Source: Planctomycetia bacterium
GTDB lineage: Bacteria; Planctomycetota; Phycisphaerae; UBA1845; UTPLA1
NCBI GenBank assembly: GCA_015200345.1
Contig: CP054187.1
Location: forward strand, 416,470-480,469
Reading direction: 5' to 3'
Length of the DNA stretch: 64,000 bases
The notes under the pieces were generated by a model. It was not told where the DNA came from. It saw only the letters and a list, made by a program, of their open reading frames with translations, and ran no database searches. Positions within the stretch are counted from its first letter, which is position 1, and each line of letters begins with the position of its first letter. The translations under genes were made by a program, and so were the position numbers. This document shows, piece after piece, positions 11,655-45,064 of this stretch.

Positions 11655-13250
11655 TAGCCCGCATATTTCATCAGTGCTTTCCGAAGCACGTTGATAGCGT
11701 GGTAAGTCGGAGTTTGCGTGGGTCTGGAGGCGGTGACGTGGTTTTTGCGCGCAGAACCCCCTTACCCCCATGCGATCGTCGGGTTGTTGGTGGGTCATGA
11801 CGGGGCAGGCGGGATCAGATGCAGTCGCGGAAGCAGGGATCGCCACTGATCCTGCAACGGGTAGCTGCTCGAGAGTCGCAGCACGACGCGACGCACCGAG
11901 ACGACCACCCGGGCCGCAACCTTGAAGAGCTTGAGGCGAATCGTCTCCACCTGGGCCTCGGCGAGTTCGGTGCCGGCCAGCGCCGTGCGGCGAAGCGTTT
12001 CCACCAGGACGTAGGCCGCCGAGGACAACAGCAGCCGGAACTGGTTGGCCATGAAGCCGTAACACTGGTGCGGTCGGCGAAGAGCCCGAGCTGCTGCTCC
12101 TTGATGCGGTTCTCCATGGCACCGCGGGCCGTGTACAGTCCGTCGTAGATATCACTCGGCGTGCGGTCCGTCAGGTTGGTCACCACGAATCGAACGTTCG
12201 GTCCCTGCGCCAGTCGTTCGGCCTTGACGATCACGCGACGCGGGCGATCCCAGGTCTGCGCCGCGTATGGGACCTCGTGGAAGTTCCGCACCTTCTGCTG
12301 CGTCGCGGCGAACTGCGCCTCGGCCGCCTGCATGAAAGGCTCGGCCACTTTCTCCAACACGACATTCCGCGCCAGCCCCAGCACATACTCCACCCCGTGC
12401 CGGTCGCACCATTTCATCATCCGCCAGCGGCAGAAGCCGGAGTCCCCGCGGACGATGATCCGCACGCCGGGCCACGCCTGTCGCAAGCGCTGCACCAGGA
12501 GCTTCAGGATGGGCCACGCATGATGCGCCCCGTCGATGTTGCTGGGCCGCAGGTAGGAGACCAGCAGCCGCGCGCCGCAGAACACATACAGCGGCAGGAA
12601 GCAGTGGTGGTCATAGTAGCCGTGGAAGAAGCGGCCCTCCTGGTTGCCGTGGATCGGATCGTCGGTCGCGTCAAAGTCGAGGATCAATTCCTCAGGCGGC
12701 TTCTCGTACGACGCGATGAACTGCTCCACCAGCACGCGCGACATCCGAACCAGGTCGCCGCGCGTGACGCGGTTCTCCAGTCGGCACAGGGTCGGACTGC
12801 TGGCCAGCGGCTCATCCGGACACGGCGGCCGCCCGGTCAGGACCGCCAGCACGGGATCGGTCCGCAGCGTTTGATGGTCGTTGAGGTCTTCGTATCCCAG
12901 CGCGATGGCGAAGATGCGCTGGGCCAGCATGACCCGCTGGTCGTGTTGAATGCGGTCCGGATCGCGCGGGTCGTTGATGACCGCAGCGAGTTGGTCGACC
13001 AGACCCAGACGCCGCTCGACCTCCCGAAGCAGCAACCCCCCGGCGTCGGAGGTCAGCGTTCCGCCTGTAAAATCGGCGACGATTTTCTTGCGGCCGAGGC
13101 TGGAAAAAAGAAGCGGTTGTGCGTTACAGTCTGTCACGAAAAGGCCTCCCTGCCTAAGGACCGGAATGTTCCTGTCAGAACCCCAGTCTACAAGGCTTCG
13201 AGGCTTTTTCTATTTCAATTCCACATCAAACTGATGAAATATTCGGGCTA
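11655..13250 (-). mobile_element. IS1380-family insertion sequence (about 1.6 kb) with terminal inverted repeats
   Basis: Left end is TAGCCCGCATATTTCATCAGT (11655-11675). The reverse complement of the right end (13230-13250) is TAGCCCGAATATTTCATCAGT, a 20/21 match. The repeats enclose one DDE transposase reading frame. The target-site duplication is ambiguous (CTAG/CTAA or TA). Confidence 0.8.
11795..13137 (-). pseudogene. IS1380-family DDE transposase, interrupted by a frameshift near 12053-12070
   Basis: N-terminus MTDCNAQPLLFSSLGRKKIVADFTGGTLTSDAGGLLLREVERRLGL...ALGYEDLNDH is typical IS1380 transposase. After ...LFADRTS the frame becomes nonsense (VTASWPTSSGCCCPRRP). The canonical continuation MANQFRLLLSSAAYVLVETLRR... 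is in another frame (ORF 11795..12052). One missing base around agtgttacggcttcatgg would restore S-C-x-G-F-M-A-N-Q-F. Confidence 0.75.
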
Positions 13251-13381: not shown

Positions 13382-13407
13382 GAGCCGCGCACTTCAGCTC
13401 GCGCGGC
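13382..13407. repeat. REP-like imperfect palindrome (variant copy)
   Basis: GAGCCGCGCACTTCAGCTCGCGCGGC has the same outer arms (GAGCCGCG...CGCGCGGC) and TTCA centre as the 26-mer at 14120 and 43431. Confidence 0.5.
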
Positions 13408-14100: not shown

Positions 14101-14208
14101 GAGCCGCGGGCTGCCCAATGAGCCGCGGGCTTCAGCCCGCGCGGCCATTCGATCACGCGTGAACGCTTCGCACCGAATCCCAACGCCGCGCGAGCTAACG
14201 CTCGCGGC

Positions 14209-14210
<2 letters not shown>
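14101..14210. repeat. REP cluster (half-site + full REP + inverted variant REP; BIME-like)
   Basis: Half-site GAGCCGCGGGCT at 14101-14112. Full GAGCCGCGGGCTTCAGCCCGCGCGGC at 14120-14145, identical to 43431-43456. Inverted variant GCCGCGCGAGCTAACGCTCGCGGCTC at 14185-14210, which abuts or overlaps the stop codon of the M28 peptidase gene. Confidence 0.7.
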
Positions 14211-15651
<1,441 letters not shown>

Positions 15652-40537: not shown

Positions 40538-42427
40538 ATGCTGAACAGCGACCATTCGATCCGCTCTACCACACCGCGCGGCGCGATCCGCCTCGCTGCG
40601 GCGTTTGCCTGCGTGCTGAACCTCGGCATGTCGCTTCGGGCTTCCGCACAGATGATCAGCGACGAGGCCCTGGCCCGGCTCGATTTGCGATCGGCCTGGA
40701 GCATCGACCTGCCGCTTGAGGGCGGTGAAGAAGTCACGCGCACCGTCGCACTCGATGACAACCTCTACGTCCTCACGTCCATCAATCGCGTGTACGCCGT
40801 CCATCTGCACACGGGCATTCTCCGCTGGGCCTCCGATGTCTCGTCGGCGGGCGATCAAGTCCGCGGCCCCACGCACAGCAACGAGTATGCCGTATTCACG
40901 ACACCCGGCGCCGTGCGCATGCTCGATCGTCGCACCGGACTCATCCCCGGCGAGCCGCGCCATCTTTCCGGTGTTGTCGTGGAAATCAAGCACGACACGG
41001 CCGAAGTGAACCTCGGCGAGGTCCACGGCCTCAAGGGCGGTGAGATTCTCAACGTTTACATGGTAAACGAATACGGCGATCACGAGGGCGATCCCGTCGC
41101 CCGCATCCAGCTTGGCGCGGTCAAGAATCGGTACAGCAAAGGTCAAATCACATCGCTCAACTCCAGCGTCAAACCGCTCGCTGGTTACAAAGTCGAAGCC
41201 GACCTCACCATGCCGCTTGAGGAAATCAAACTGCCCTTCGCGGCGAGCAGTCCGGCCGTCGCGAACGCAAGCCATCTTTTCGTCGGCGCCGCCAATCAGC
41301 GCTTTTATTGCGTCGATATCCATCGCAACGTGACCCATTGGCAGTTGATGACCCCCAACACGGTGACGGTCCCCCCCATCCTCGACGGCAAGAATCTGCT
41401 GATCGCCGGGCAGGACGGCCTGGTCACCTCTTGCACGCAGGCGGAGAAAGCCAGGAACTGGACCTTCATGACCGAGGGGCCGATCTTCGCCAACTTGGTG
41501 ATCGACGGAGATCGGCTGTTTGTGGCATCGAGCGATCGGTCGCTGTATTGCCTGAACCGCGTGACCGGCAAGCGACTCTGGCGTGAGCGGTTTGATTCGC
41601 AACTCAATACCGCGCCGATGATCTCGGACGGGCGCGTTTACCTGCCAGTCCCGGATACGGGCCTGCACGTCCTCGACGCGACCAACGGCACGCAACTCTG
41701 GAAGCGGCCACAGGGTGGACGGTTTCTGCTGCAACTCGATCGTGATGCCATTCTGCTGTCAGGAGAGGGGACCGGCGCGCTGATTCGCGTCGATGCCGCC
41801 AAGGGAACACGCAAGCAAGTCGCTGAATTGAGCAGCGTGCGTCAAGTGACATCCAGCGCGGCGGCGCAGGCGATTCTGATCGCGTCGGCAGATGGGCGCG
41901 TGCAGAGTCTTCGCTCGCGATTTGCACCTCGTGTCCGCCCCGACGACGTCGCCGAGGTCCTGTACGACGCCGACAAGGCACGAGCCATCGCCAAAGTGGA
42001 CGCCGATCGCAAGGCGGCCGCCGAGAAGAAAACCGTTGAACAGCCCAGGCGACCCACGGCCCGCGAGCTGATGTTCGACGACGACTGGCTCTCCAGCCGC
42101 AGCACGGCGAAGCCGGTCGGCGGTCACGGGCTGGTGGATATTTCCGAAGATGCCGAGGGCCGGAAGCCCGCAGCGGAAGCAGACGAAGGCGCCGCAGCAG
42201 AAACGGATGACGACACGGCTGACAAGGACTCCGACGACAAGGAAGGCGACAAGGAATCCGCCAACAAATCGGATGAAGAATCCGATTCCGATGACGCCGA
42301 TGCCTCGGACGATGAATCCGGAGACGATGCGGACGAATCTGCCGACGACTCCGATGAAGGCGAAGGCGAAGATGACGAGTCCGACGAAGACAACGGCGGC
42401 GGAGGCGGCGGTGGTGGCGGCGGTTGA
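40538..42427 (+). CDS. PQQ-like beta-propeller repeat protein (BamB-like) with long poly-acidic tail ending in a Gly run
   Basis: Signal peptide. Repeated blades of the form xxVYAVHLHTGILRWA, QRFYCVDIHRNVTHWQL, DRSLYCLNRVTGKRLWRE, GLHVLDATNGTQLWK. The last ~100 aa are D/E/S-rich and end in GGGGGGGGGG. Confidence 0.75.
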   Translation: MLNSDHSIRSTTPRGAIRLAAAFACVLNLGMSLRASAQMISDEALARLDLRSAWSIDLPLEGGEEVTRTVALDDNLYVLTSINRVYAVHLHTGILRWASDVSSAGDQVRGPTHSNEYAVFTTPGAVRMLDRRTGLIPGEPRHLSGVVVEIKHDTAEVNLGEVHGLKGGEILNVYMVNEYGDHEGDPVARIQLGAVKNRYSKGQITSLNSSVKPLAGYKVEADLTMPLEEIKLPFAASSPAVANASHLFVGAANQRFYCVDIHRNVTHWQLMTPNTVTVPPILDGKNLLIAGQDGLVTSCTQAEKARNWTFMTEGPIFANLVIDGDRLFVASSDRSLYCLNRVTGKRLWRERFDSQLNTAPMISDGRVYLPVPDTGLHVLDATNGTQLWKRPQGGRFLLQLDRDAILLSGEGTGALIRVDAAKGTRKQVAELSSVRQVTSSAAAQAILIASADGRVQSLRSRFAPRVRPDDVAEVLYDADKARAIAKVDADRKAAAEKKTVEQPRRPTARELMFDDDWLSSRSTAKPVGGHGLVDISEDAEGRKPAAEADEGAAAETDDDTADKDSDDKEGDKESANKSDEESDSDDADASDDESGDDADESADDSDEGEGEDDESDEDNGGGGGGGGGG

Positions 42428-42532: not shown

Positions 42533-45064
42533 ATGCCGACGCAACGCATCCGCCGGGCACTCATTGCAGTCTATGACAAGACGGGCATCGCCAACTTCGC
42601 CCGCGCGCTCGTCGATGAGTTCGACTTCGAAATCATCTCCACCGGCGGCACCGCAAAGCACCTCAAAGACGCCGGCATTCCGGTCACAATAGTTGAGGAA
42701 GTCACCGGCTTTCCCGAACTGCTCGACGGCCGCGTGAAAACGCTGCACCCGAAGATTCACGCCGGCATCCTCGCCGACCGCGACAACCCCGAACACATGC
42801 GGCAGCTCGCCGAGCACGGCATCCAACCCATCGACATGGTGGTGGTGAATCTGTATCCGTTCGAGAAGACGGTGGCGGACCCGGCCTGCAAGTTCGAAGA
42901 CGCGATCGAGATGATCGACATCGGCGGGCCGTGCATGCTCCGCGCGGCGGCGAAGAATCATCGGCACGTCCTGCCGGTGTTAGCGACGGAATGGGCGTTG
43001 GATGCCGTGCTCCGGCACCTTCGAGGTCAACTCGACGAGGACTCGGTCCGATTTCGCGCGAAGCTGGCGGGGCGATGCTTCCTGCGCACCCGTGGTTATG
43101 ACGGCCATGTGGGTGATTACCTGCTCCTTCAATCCCTTGATTCGCCGGTATCTCCGTCGGAGCAGGCCTTCGCACTGTTCACTTGTCTATTGCTGACGAA
43201 GATATCCGATCTGCGCTATGGCGAGAACGCTCATCAGCGCGCGGCCTACCAACGGTACTTCGAGCAGTCAACGCCGTTCGATTCGGCGTTCGATTCAAGC
43301 ACGCCGACCAACACTTCCTTCAATAATCTCATCGACGCCGATGCGGCCAGGGGCCTGTGTGCGGAATTGGCGCGTTCCATCAATCCCGCGCAACGAGCCG
43401 CGGGCGATCAACGAGCCGCGGGCGATCAACGAGCCGCGGGCTTCAGCCCGCGCGGCCAATTGAACGCAGGCGCCAGCCCACTCGCGCCGCCGACCATCGG
43501 CGATCCGACCTGGCTCCTGACCTGGACCACCTATGGAACTTGGCTCCCGGGAGACCCGCGCGGATACGTGAGCCGAACGCCAACAGAATCCGGCACCCAT
43601 GAGATCTTCAATGCACCCGGGCAACCCTATTCGACCGATCAGCCGGAATTGTCCGAAGCGGCCAAAGATCGAATGGACGGAGAGCCGGTGCTCCTGGACG
43701 CAAGGCATGCGGCTGCTGCAAGCGATGCATTCATGAAAGCCGCAGCGGCACACAATATTCGGCTCGTGGCCTATGCAATCATGCCGAATCATGTTCACGT
43801 GCTGTGCCAGGCAACACAAAATGGTCCGGAACTACTCCGACTCTTCAAGGGGGTATCATCGCGCCGGCTGGGGCAGGCATTTTCGTTGGCAAGCTCACCA
43901 CGCTGGTGGACAAAATCGGGTTCGACCCGCCACTTGAAACCGGGCGACGATCCGACAGCGGCGATCGATTATGTTTGCGAGCAACTGAACTCGTTGCTCG
44001 TGCGATGCTTTGATGGACGGCGAAACAAGGGCGCGATTCGCTCTGATTCCAAAGCCGCGCGGGCTAAAGCCCGCGGCTCGATTGGCGAGATTGATCGTGC
44101 GCTGGAAAAAAACAAAGCCGCGCGGGCTGAAGCCCGCGGCTCGTTGCCTGAAGCCCGCGGCTCGTTGGCTGTCGTGTGTTTTATCAAACACACAAACGCC
44201 TGCGGGGTCGGTGTTGCGGACGATCCGGCCGAAGCCTATCGCCGTGCCTACCTCGGCGACCCCAACGCCGCCATGGGCGGCATCCTCGCGGTGAACTTTC
44301 CTGTCACCGCGGACTTCGCCGCGATGGTGATGGAGACCTACGACCGCCTCGGCAAGCCGCTGCGCGAATCCGGCGCTCCCCATGCACCCGGCGGATTCTT
44401 CGTCGAAGTGTGGATCGCGCCGTCGTTTGAAAACGCGGCCGTCGAAATCATTCGTGGCGCGACCCGCGCGCCGACGGGCGAATCGAATGCCGAAAGCCCC
44501 GGTTCTGCCTTGTCGGCGCGCCCAAAGAAAAAATGGGGCGAGAACGTGCGATTGCTCGCCGTCGGCGACCTGTCGCAGCCACCCGCGACGGATGAACTCG
44601 TCTACCGAAGCATCGCCGGCGGGATGCTCGTGCAGACGGCCGACACCGTTGGCCTTAACGAAGACCTGTGGGAAGTTGTCACGAAGCGCCGGCCCACCGA
44701 TTCTGAAATGTCAGATTTGAGATTGGCTTGGCTCATCGCCAAGCACACCAAGTCCAACGCGATCAGCCTCTGCAAGGACGGCATGCTGATCGGCAACGGC
44801 GCGGGGCAGATGAGCCGTATCATGAGCTGCCGCATCGCCACGTGGCTGGCCCGTGAGAATGGTCACGCCGACAAGCTCGCAGGCAGCGTGGCGGCTTCCG
44901 ATGCCTTTTTCCCCTTCGCTGACGGGCCGAACATTCTGATCGATGCCGGCGTGACGGCAATCATCCAGCCCGGCGGTTCGAAACGCGATGAGGACGTCAT
45001 CCATGCCTGCGACGAGCGCGGCGTCGCGATGATCTTCACCGGCACGCGGCACTTCAAGCATTAA
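42533..45064 (+). CDS. purH: Bifunctional AICAR transformylase/IMP cyclohydrolase PurH carrying a ~262-codon in-frame insertion
   Basis: N-terminal part: [80 protein letters not shown]-terminal part: [50 protein letters not shown]. At 843 aa it is far longer than a typical PurH (roughly 500-530 aa from memory), and most of the excess is the insert described in the next feature. Confidence 0.85.
43391..44163 (+). mobile_element. REP-RAYT-REP unit (REP-associated tyrosine transposase flanked by inverted REPs) embedded in frame in purH
   Basis: Left: 2 x 18-bp caacgagccgcgggcgat (43391-43426), then GAGCCGCGGGCTTCAGCCCGCGCGGC (43431-43456). Centre (about 43505-44017): [21 protein letters not shown] motif [11 protein letters not shown], and the Tyr region [12 protein letters not shown]...AAIDYV. 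Right: reverse-complement REPs GCCGCGCGGGCTAAAGCCCGCGGCTC (44054-44079) and GCCGCGCGGGCTGAAGCCCGCGGCTC (44117-44142), plus a half-site (44150-44163). Confidence 0.7.

Follow-up and report, generated by a model that had tools for sequence, protein, structure and literature searches.

A REP-flanked Y1/HUH transposase unit carried in frame within purH of Phycisphaerae bacteria

The purH locus

The stretch of DNA analysed in this work (hereafter the window) is 64,000 nucleotides long and belongs to contig CP054187.1 of a Planctomycetota bacterium of the class Phycisphaerae (GCA_015200345.1). One of its open reading frames (ORFs) encodes the purine-biosynthesis enzyme PurH, and a segment that encodes a Y1/HUH transposase domain lies inside that frame between inverted copies of a repetitive extragenic palindromic (REP) hairpin. 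Genes of REP-associated tyrosine transposases (RAYTs, or TnpA_REP) with inverted REP flanks have been reported from E. coli and Pseudomonas as REPtrons, which form class 2 of Quentin et al. (2018; PMC6006769; see also Di Nocera et al., 2013; PMC3733652). Class 3 TnpA_Y1 genes with REP-like flanking hairpins have been described in the same survey (PMC6006769). The features of the window that concern the nested unit are listed in Table 1.

Table 1. Coordinates of the chimeric ORF, its parts and the REP copies in the window (aa, amino acid residues of the 843-aa product).
Feature	Position	Strand	Evidence or remark
purH::REPtron chimeric ORF	42533..45064	+	843 aa; matches to MGS, AICARFT_IMPCHas, Y1_Tnp and the PurH equivalog
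PurH N-terminal part, aa 1-282 (IMPCH/MGS domain and start of AICARFT domain)	42533..43378	+	
Left REP-encoded linker, aa 283-321	43379..43495	+	predicted disordered
Two 18-bp tandem half-sites, left arm GAGCCGCGGGC at 43395 and 43413	43395..43423	+	
Left REP hairpin GAGCCGCGGGCTTCAGCCCGCGCGGC, read as RAAGFSPRG	43431..43456	+	exact match; single-stranded DNA hairpin of -9.7 kcal/mol
Y1/HUH transposase core (RAYT-like, class-3-like TnpA_Y1), aa 322-489	43496..43999	+	Pfam, PDB profile, Foldseek, dN/dS
HUH motif H420-V421-H422	43790..43798	+	H-x-H invariant in 13 embedded domains
Catalytic Tyr480 and Gln484 (Y-x-x-x-Q)	43970..43984	+	Gln invariant, Tyr in 12 of 13 embedded domains
Right REP-encoded linker, aa 490-545	44000..44167	+	predicted disordered
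Right REP copy 1, loop TTTA, read as AARAKARG	44054..44079	-	1 mismatch
Right REP copy 2, read as AARAEARG	44117..44142	-	exact
Right half-site, arm only	44153..44163	-	
PurH C-terminal part, aa 546-843, carrying Lys552-His553	44168..45064	+	
Intergenic REP cluster: half-site 14101, exact REP 14120-14145 (+), inverted variant 14185-14210 (-; GAGC/GCTC stem)	14101..14210		
Diverged REP copy	13382..13407	+	3 mismatches; z-score -3.7

The Pfam scan of the 843-aa product identified MGS at residues 18-133 and AICARFT_IMPCHas split over three stretches. The NCBIfam PurH equivalog PRK00881 was matched with 563 bits (cut-off of 402). The first PurH block ends at residue 282 and the block FIKHTNACG begins at residue 550, with 263 codons inserted in frame at a loop that measures 6-22 residues in insert-free PurH relatives. 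The inserted segment (43379-44167, hereafter the cassette) lies upstream of Lys552 and His553, which stand 7 and 8 residues past the right junction and which we take to be the catalytic Lys-His pair of AICAR transformylase. There is no stop codon in the host frame of the cassette, while each of the other five frames has 3-9. The GC content is 0.615 for the cassette and 0.620 for the host gene.

The lysine, the histidine and the other PurH motifs are invariant among 54 aligned sequences. The ratio of nonsynonymous to synonymous substitution rates (dN/dS), calculated between the window and the orthologue from Phycisphaerae bacterium RAS2, is 0.06 for residues 1-145 of PurH and 0.112 for its C-terminal part. 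The host portion of the predicted chimera is matched by Foldseek to PurH structures, including 3zzm and 1pkx. The host parts would thus still form a working PurH that is enzymatically active.

A first-pass annotation of the window had described the ORF as PurH at both ends, separated by about 262 codons that keep the frame, lack a stop and form a complete REP-RAYT-REP unit, and it had placed inverted 26-nt REP copies and half-sites on both sides of the transposase and an identical 26-mer in intergenic DNA. This anatomy was recovered in full. The positions of the ORF, the domain and the REPs agree, all the REP copies and arms were located, and a further arm was found beside the intergenic copy.

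The nested transposase domain

Residues 392-461 matched Y1_Tnp (PF01797) with 28.5 bits, where the gathering cut-off is 23. The motifs of the domain are an 18-residue block at residues 327-344, HVH at 420-422 (PNHVHVL), RWWTKSGS at 457-464 and IDYVCEQ at 478-484. A profile of the inserts that was compared with solved structures gave IS200/IS605 TnpA proteins with E of about 1e-7 and the HUH region aligned. The alignment to one of them, the TnpA structure 2fyx, runs to the Tyr-Gln motif, where the stretch from Tyr to Gln pairs with its YIENQ end.

The structure of the chimera was predicted with AlphaFold2 from the 54-sequence alignment. The mean predicted local distance difference test (pLDDT) score is 75.9, with values above 90 over about residues 380-500 of the domain and below 50 in the linkers (residues 291-313 and 502-543). 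A folded TnpA-like domain on two disordered linkers is thus predicted, as the first-pass annotation had suggested that structure prediction might reveal. The Foldseek template modelling (TM) scores of the insert are 0.6-0.7 to the TnpA proteins of ISDra2 (0.63-0.68), IS200 and IS608, and 0.48 to TnpA_REP of E. coli (4er8).

The dN/dS of the transposase core is 0.133 between the window and RAS2, which is of the same order as that of the PurH C-terminal part. The core is under purifying selection, like PurH itself. The nearest free-standing relatives are Planctomycetota proteins of about 180-200 aa that are up to about 50% identical to such domains (47% for the domain of the window). They amount to about 1000 representative clusters and carry the name RayT in IMG. 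A homologue search with the transposase core by itself returned free-standing proteins only and hence gives no census of host architectures. The whole cassette unit is present once in the window.

REP hairpins and the linkers they encode

Five matches to the 26-mer were found in the window where 0.01 would be expected by chance, and each REP copy, as single-stranded DNA, is calculated to fold into a hairpin with an energy between -9.7 and -12.4 kcal/mol. The identical intergenic 26-mer and its variants lie about 29 kb from purH. Additional REP copies are also present at the loci of relatives. The layout of the cassette, with REPs on the plus strand before the domain and on the minus strand after it, is kept in nearly all PurH and valyl-tRNA synthetase (ValRS) hosts that were compared, in which the first downstream REP usually begins 52-55 nt past the core.

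The stem variants change together within a hairpin and across both flanks of one locus. The majority of loci have a GGGC/GCCC stem. A GGAC/GTCC stem is found at L003 and likewise at L005 and L007, a GAAC/GTTC stem at L016 and L020 and also at L022 (the downstream flank of which is beyond the contig end), and a CACGGCC/GGCCGTG stem at L004. At L014, the downstream REP has GAGC/GCTC and the upstream copy has GGGC/GCCC. Among 23 distinct flank sequences, five of the nine stem pairs exhibit changes on both sides. Stem cells are paired in 93% of cases, compared with 16-51% when the partner is slid, and the covariation score was reached by none of 500 shuffles.

The same REP DNA encodes several peptides: EPRASARA is the one in most hosts, the window and RAS2 have RAAGFSPRG, and a flipped REP yields RPRGLKPAA. 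The peptide is not the conserved entity, because the same DNA is read in different frames and orientations. This reading in different frames, together with the compensatory changes, indicates that the REP stems are constrained as DNA. The synonymous divergence (dS) between the window and RAS2 is 0.27 in the left linker and 0.275 in the right linker, compared with 0.56-0.65 in neighbouring coding sequence, and the dN/dS values of the two linkers are 0.41 and 1.17. Low dS with such ratios also points to constraint at the DNA level.

The intergenic cluster at 14101-14210 is a REPIN-like doublet that begins at the stop codon of an M28 peptidase gene (14209..15651, minus strand). Tandem duplications of 18-19 bp that contain only the REP 5' flank and left arm are found at 43395-43423, 44153-44163 and 14101-14111, so that they are common to the nested unit and the intergenic copy. 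These left-arm duplications may have arisen by slippage, or else the loop may have been cleaved and religated.

Distribution among PurH homologues

A homologue search with the 843-aa protein identified dozens of PurH proteins of 750-870 aa with an internal PF01797 domain, at 46-74% identity and 100% query coverage. The complete genome of Phycisphaerae bacterium RAS2 encodes one of them (P0001), which is 74% identical to the protein of the window over its whole length. The RAS2 locus is syntenic with the window: in both, purH follows a PQQ-type beta-propeller gene and precedes one for an ABC-2 permease. Another cassette-bearing PurH cluster (P0021) is found on 28 contigs. The insert occupies the same loop in all aligned cassette-bearing PurH proteins. 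The segment of about 260 residues is therefore shared by the relatives, and REP flanks are present in them as well. The first-pass annotation had named a shared segment lacking such flanks as grounds for dropping the mobile-element reading, so that this outcome speaks for that reading.

The loop could be classified in 116 of the 120 best PurH matches, and the cassette counts are lower bounds. At least 28 of the 120 have a domain of the window type (G1; W[LF]LTWTTYG...), and at least 38 have a different, canonical class-2 RAYT (G2; RRxLPH..PGxxYF.TF, PDHVHLL and YIxxNP). The rest of the 116 consist of 15 short inserts, several of which are REP-like, 34 plain loops and one long insert that was left out of the classes. 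The G2 cassette of locus L083 is a textbook REPtron, since it is flanked by two pairs of inverted hairpins tagged with GTAG or GTAC. A single ancient insertion that diverged into both cassette types was considered and rejected as unparsimonious; the domain of the window is 47% identical to free-standing class-3-like proteins, and its identity to the class-2 cassettes is only 25-33% and is confined to parts of the sequence.

The frame is open across both junctions in all of the more than 60 cassette-bearing PurH proteins. Judging from these comparisons, the arrangement is old and widespread in Phycisphaerae. The first-pass annotation had offered an inactivated or split purH and an assembly chimera among its readings. 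The unit proved to be real and recurrent, and the loop is used by two transposase classes. Apart from the a priori oddity of the arrangement, nothing favours a single recent insertion that destroyed purH function or an artefact of assembly, and both are rejected on the comparative data: the same architecture stands at the syntenic locus of the complete RAS2 genome and in dozens of independent assemblies, the PurH parts have a dN/dS of 0.06-0.11 with an invariant K552-H553, the host frame alone is free of stops, and the GC content of the cassette equals that of its host.

Some of the records concerned have cyanobacterial labels. The PurH P0008 and its locus L084 (GCA_002213405.1, 'cyanobacterium TDX16') and P0273 ('Leptolyngbya sp. 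PLA2') have a Phycisphaerae-type purH::RAYT or a free-standing domain, which suggests that these are mislabelled or contaminated assemblies.

Occurrence in other host proteins

The alignment of inserts was used to scan one genome per species. The scan gave 422 matches, of which 80 were kept and then assigned by tblastn, open-frame analysis and Pfam. The hosts of the kept class-3-like domains are Phycisphaerae and other Planctomycetota. Twelve of the 80 are in PurH and ten are in ValRS, where all share one site (...SDQWFV..GD / insert / PGLAQAAMD...; L010-L012, L014, L016, L018-L020, L022 and L025). One is in leucyl-tRNA synthetase (LeuRS; L021), and MmeI-type restriction-modification enzymes host seven, with more than one insertion site (L023, L024, L026, L033, L040, L042 and L078). 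One more is in an N-terminal extension of MutS (L041), which is an open-frame call with an unchecked start codon and may be read-through instead of a true fusion. The remainder are mostly free-standing, with a few in longer or truncated open frames. In the metagenome-assembled genome Bin_19R, LeuRS and ValRS each carry a nested copy.

The neighbour-joining tree of the cores, which has no support values, exhibits one clade each for PurH-, ValRS- and MmeI-embedded domains, although the MmeI clade also contains one MutS-linked and one partial sequence. In this tree, the free-standing genes from Gemmatales, Pirellulales and Kuenenia are set apart from a group formed by the PurH, ValRS and LeuRS clades.

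The frame is also kept open through the junctions in the ValRS, LeuRS and MmeI hosts. This bears on a rival reading in which the chimera is not the functional species and a separate transposase arises, whether by initiation at an internal codon such as TTG 43460, which the first-pass annotation had considered, or by proteolysis in the linkers. Three PurH homologues (P0004, P0006 and P0008) have a Met 3-4 residues ahead of the domain, and the predicted-disordered linkers could be accessible to proteases. However, no conserved Met or start codon ahead of the domain was found among the aligned PurH relatives, the open frame at the second junction in more than 60 PurH and in the other hosts would be needless if the product ended before it, and the C-terminal half of PurH, which is contained in one domain, requires upstream translation. 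A separate product is accordingly regarded as improbable. Because no start is conserved before the domain and the frame is open at both junctions, one read-through polypeptide is the economical reading.

In-frame insertions of REPs without a transposase are common in host proteins. They were observed in P0013 (near the C-terminus), P0029, P0035, the loop of P0052 and L014, where one ValRS has three further REP-only sites (L014:2360-6835). One PurH has a block of about 60 aa made of SRDRKGA/EARGMGQ repeats. These genomes seem to tolerate translated REPs widely.

Turnover at the purH loop

Close PurH pairs were compared over the conserved core only, which consists of residues 1-145 and the C-terminal part. 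The protein database is clustered at 90% identity and is enriched for discordant pairs, so that the frequency of such pairs is uninterpretable. The G1-bearing P0008 has a core identity of 97% with the cassette-free P0088, P0068 and P0090. The cores of P0048 and P0071, both of which have G2, are 98% identical and their cassettes just 44%. For P0064 and P0096, the core is 95% identical, the segment upstream of the cassette 91% and the cassettes 47%, and homology breaks exactly at the cassette ends. P0004 (G1) and P0032 (G2) are 89% identical across the whole host.

At the DNA level, cassette-bearing and cassette-free purH genes are found at the same syntenic locus (L084 compared with L085 and L086; L082 compared with L083). 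L084 and L085 are 93-100% identical outside a replaced, mosaic tract of about 1.2 kb. The loop of the insert-free L087 has a solo REP of the same family (GAGCCACGGACTTCAGGCCGTGGC, minus strand), and L086 has a degenerate copy.

At one locus, the purH loop thus exists in four states among close relatives: it may be empty, hold a solo REP, or carry either a class-3-like cassette or a class-2 RAYT between GTAG-REPs. Since very close PurH relatives differ in this state, cassettes have been gained, lost or replaced at one loop. The turnover may have proceeded either by site-directed insertion or by ordinary allelic recombination with a strong filter for permissiveness.

Residues 146-260 of PurH (43312 being the last and 42968 the first position of this segment in the window) are hypervariable. 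They are about 30% identical where the rest of the core is 95-99% identical, and insert-free PurH proteins are included in this pattern. Between the window and RAS2, the segment has 31% amino-acid identity and an apparent dS of 2.0, compared with 0.6 in its flanks. The type of the hypervariable segment assorts independently of the cassette type, with an apparent frequency that is inflated by the 90% clustering. Cassettes that appeared more similar than their hosts (for example P0037 and P0048, with 84% for the host and 99% for the cassette) proved to be an artefact of this segment, and such pairs are plain close relatives when it is excluded.

The pattern at the loop leads to a more far-reaching proposal that is compatible with, and extends, the explanation favoured below. 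REPtrons may be homing-like selfish elements that target the purH loop and the equivalent loops of ValRS and LeuRS, and that spread by site-specific insertion or by allelic recombination stimulated by nicks at REPs. They would resemble inteins and homing-endonuclease genes but would do without splicing. At least two unrelated Y1 classes would then supply REPtrons that reside in a few permissive loops of essential enzymes, where they are expressed as part of the host protein, cannot be deleted without killing the gene and are exchanged between lineages, and the same activity may generate the hypervariable segment upstream. The occurrence of two unrelated Y1 classes and of solo REPs in exactly one loop is in line with this proposal. 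So are the different cassettes in PurH cores of 95-98% identity, the breakpoints of P0064 and P0096 at the cassette ends, the mosaic tract of L084 and L085, and the separate clades of PurH- and ValRS-embedded domains. Yet the junctions yielded neither a target motif nor a cleavage site for empty alleles, and the same pattern could be given by ordinary recombination and loss under a strong filter, as few loops tolerate 250 residues. The enrichment of discordant pairs by the clustering and the trees without support values also limit what these patterns can say. We put the proposal forward tentatively, as possible rather than probable.

The same observations bear on exaptation, in which the HUH domain and the hairpins would have ceased to serve REP mobility and would have been co-opted for a host function, such as nucleic-acid binding that regulates PurH, or regulation of the purH mRNA by the hairpins. 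Long residence, purifying selection comparable to that on the host enzyme and the vertical inheritance seen in the comparison of the window with RAS2 would agree with such a role, and RAYTs are generally viewed as domesticated transposases (PMC6006769; PMC8266576). Against this, the cassette is dispensable for PurH, as near-identical cores lack it; two unrelated classes interchange at the loop; and the same domain is found in unrelated enzymes. Conservation falls on the HUH motif and Tyr needed for catalysis and on the cognate hairpins, and identical REPs occur elsewhere in the genome. Exaptation is considered unlikely.

Comparison with known systems

The nested unit resembles REPtrons in having one Y1/HUH gene between inverted, short, G+C-rich hairpins, copies of which also lie elsewhere in the window, and in its vertical inheritance. 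The class-2 cassettes at the PurH loop of relatives are canonical members of that group (RRxLPH...PDHVHLL...YIxxNP with GTAG-tagged flanks). REPtrons are free-standing and intergenic, whereas the unit of the window has neither a start nor a stop of its own and is nested inside the frame of an enzyme. Its REP begins with (C/T)GAGCC at the 5' end and lacks the GTAG/CGTC tag of RAYT REPs, and its domain falls below the NCBIfam RAYT cut-off, unlike class-2 RAYTs.

Class 3 TnpA_Y1 proteins (PMC6006769) share with the domain of the window the Planctomycete hosts, the NHVH, W-T and Tyr...Gln motifs, the atypical REP-like hairpins and a size of about 180 aa when free-standing. The spacing of the last motif differs by one residue, with Y-x3-Q in the window and YV[VI][AENY]EQ as the published motif (PMC6006769), and the window hairpins have ACGA, TCGA or ATGA 5' of the stem, in which the CnGA foot described for class 3 is not clearly recognisable.

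The best sequence and fold matches among solved structures are IS200/IS605 transposases (IS608 and ISDra2), which have the same HUH, Tyr and Gln. These transposases recognise hairpins and act on single strands. The unit differs from a multicopy insertion sequence (IS) whose left and right ends are distinct: both its flanks are the same hairpin in inverted orientation, tnpB is absent, and what recurs outside it is the short hairpin and not the entire unit.

In-frame palindromic repeats have been reported as Rickettsia palindromic elements and 'REP-decorated' proteins, in which hairpins are translated in functional and often housekeeping proteins, including tRNA synthetases (PMC3733652). Those insertions are 20-80 aa of repeat only, and here a folded transposase domain is predicted to be carried too.

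Inteins and homing-endonuclease genes are similar in being selfish nuclease inserts of essential genes, which they occupy in frame and at a conserved position. They too are sporadic among close relatives and form one clade per host site. The enzyme of the window is a HUH single-strand enzyme and not of the LAGLIDADG or HNH kind. The Pfam scan of the 843-aa product gave no intein family, and intein splice-junction residues are not conserved among relatives (ARS/INP ... SLA/VVC in the window). An intein is ruled out on these two grounds, and because both are lacking the insert is expected to remain in the mature protein.

Interpretation

Among the four readings offered by the first-pass annotation, a tolerated loop insertion that gives a PurH-RAYT chimera is the one favoured by our findings. 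We consider it probable that a complete REPtron, at 43379-44167, resides in a permissive loop of the essential purH gene and is translated together with it as a chimera. The unit would comprise a class-3-like Y1/HUH gene for a single-strand-DNA transposase between inverted cognate REP hairpins, placed in frame in a variable loop. A single chain of 843 aa would run from PurH 1-282 through a disordered REP linker, the folded transposase and a second disordered REP linker to PurH 546-843. The permissive loop would let PurH stay functional. The transposase domain would stay functional as well and would most likely be the REP-processing enzyme of the genome, which binds and cuts GAGCC...TTCA hairpins on single-stranded DNA. 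Transcription and translation would be borrowed from the essential host gene, and because an imprecise deletion of the unit would destroy that gene, the unit would be protected from loss.

Several points weigh against this interpretation. Solely the frame, kept open in every lineage, speaks for a single polypeptide, and the protection from deletion is argued on evolutionary grounds. Another purH gene, free of the insert, might be present in the genome and supply the enzyme, which is countered indirectly by the synteny with insert-free orthologues and by the strong purifying selection. The NCBIfam RAYT equivalog NF047646 (REP_Tyr_transpos), which has a cut-off of 80 bits, scored 38.8 and 41.3, and transpos_IS200, with a cut-off of 55, scored 25.7. 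The domain is for this reason called RAYT-like rather than a canonical RAYT, so that the earlier assignment to the HUH/Y1 transposases was retained and its placement among RAYTs proper was not. In P0006, a PurH of 806 aa, Phe replaces the catalytic Tyr of the nested domain (IDFICSQ) while the remaining domain is conserved. This nested domain may be an inactivated copy, and transposase activity is thus not universal among embedded domains. Lastly, only about four REP copies lie outside purH within the window.

RAYTs, REPtrons, class-3 TnpA_Y1 proteins and in-frame REPs are already known. A literature search of incomplete coverage yielded no account of a RAYT inside PurH or inside a tRNA synthetase, and the only existing trace in the records is automatic double annotations of the form 'PurH/RayT'. 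That entire REPtrons reside in frame within essential enzymes across a bacterial class, with two transposase classes sharing one loop, is apparently undescribed. As the arrangement recurs in dozens of relatives and in other essential genes, the nested unit appears to be a long-lived mode of persistence that has likewise escaped description.

RAYT/REP systems are abundant and have been treated as intergenic, free-standing and domesticated genes. Here, an essential enzyme would contain the transposase as one of its domains throughout a bacterial class, the cognate hairpins would be translated to give the linkers, and the arrangement is seen again in tRNA synthetases. Such a natural system would have RAYT expression hard-wired to a housekeeping gene, and Phycisphaerae bacterium RAS2 is a cultured and fully sequenced host in which activity and REP dynamics could be studied. 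If the interpretation is true, it would add a persistence strategy for mobile or selfish DNA that is new and intein-like in logic. There is also a consequence for annotation, as several cassette-bearing PurH proteins are named 'transposase' or 'hypothetical protein' in public records. Family surveys will miss nested units because unexpectedly long 'fusion' proteins are discarded from them (PMC6006769).

Neighbouring genes

A BamB/PQQ-type beta-propeller gene (40538-42427, plus strand) lies upstream of purH. Its product has a long acidic tail rich in Asp, Glu and Ser, followed by a run of 11 Gly at the end. The gene order from the propeller to purH is kept in every relative examined. Further away, an ORF for a DDE transposase (11815-13137, minus strand; DDE_Tnp_1_4, E of 1e-135) and the diverged REP at 13382 are separated by about 250 bp. 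This ORF is probably truncated or frameshifted at its C-terminus, because the profile is covered at positions 2-352 of 435.

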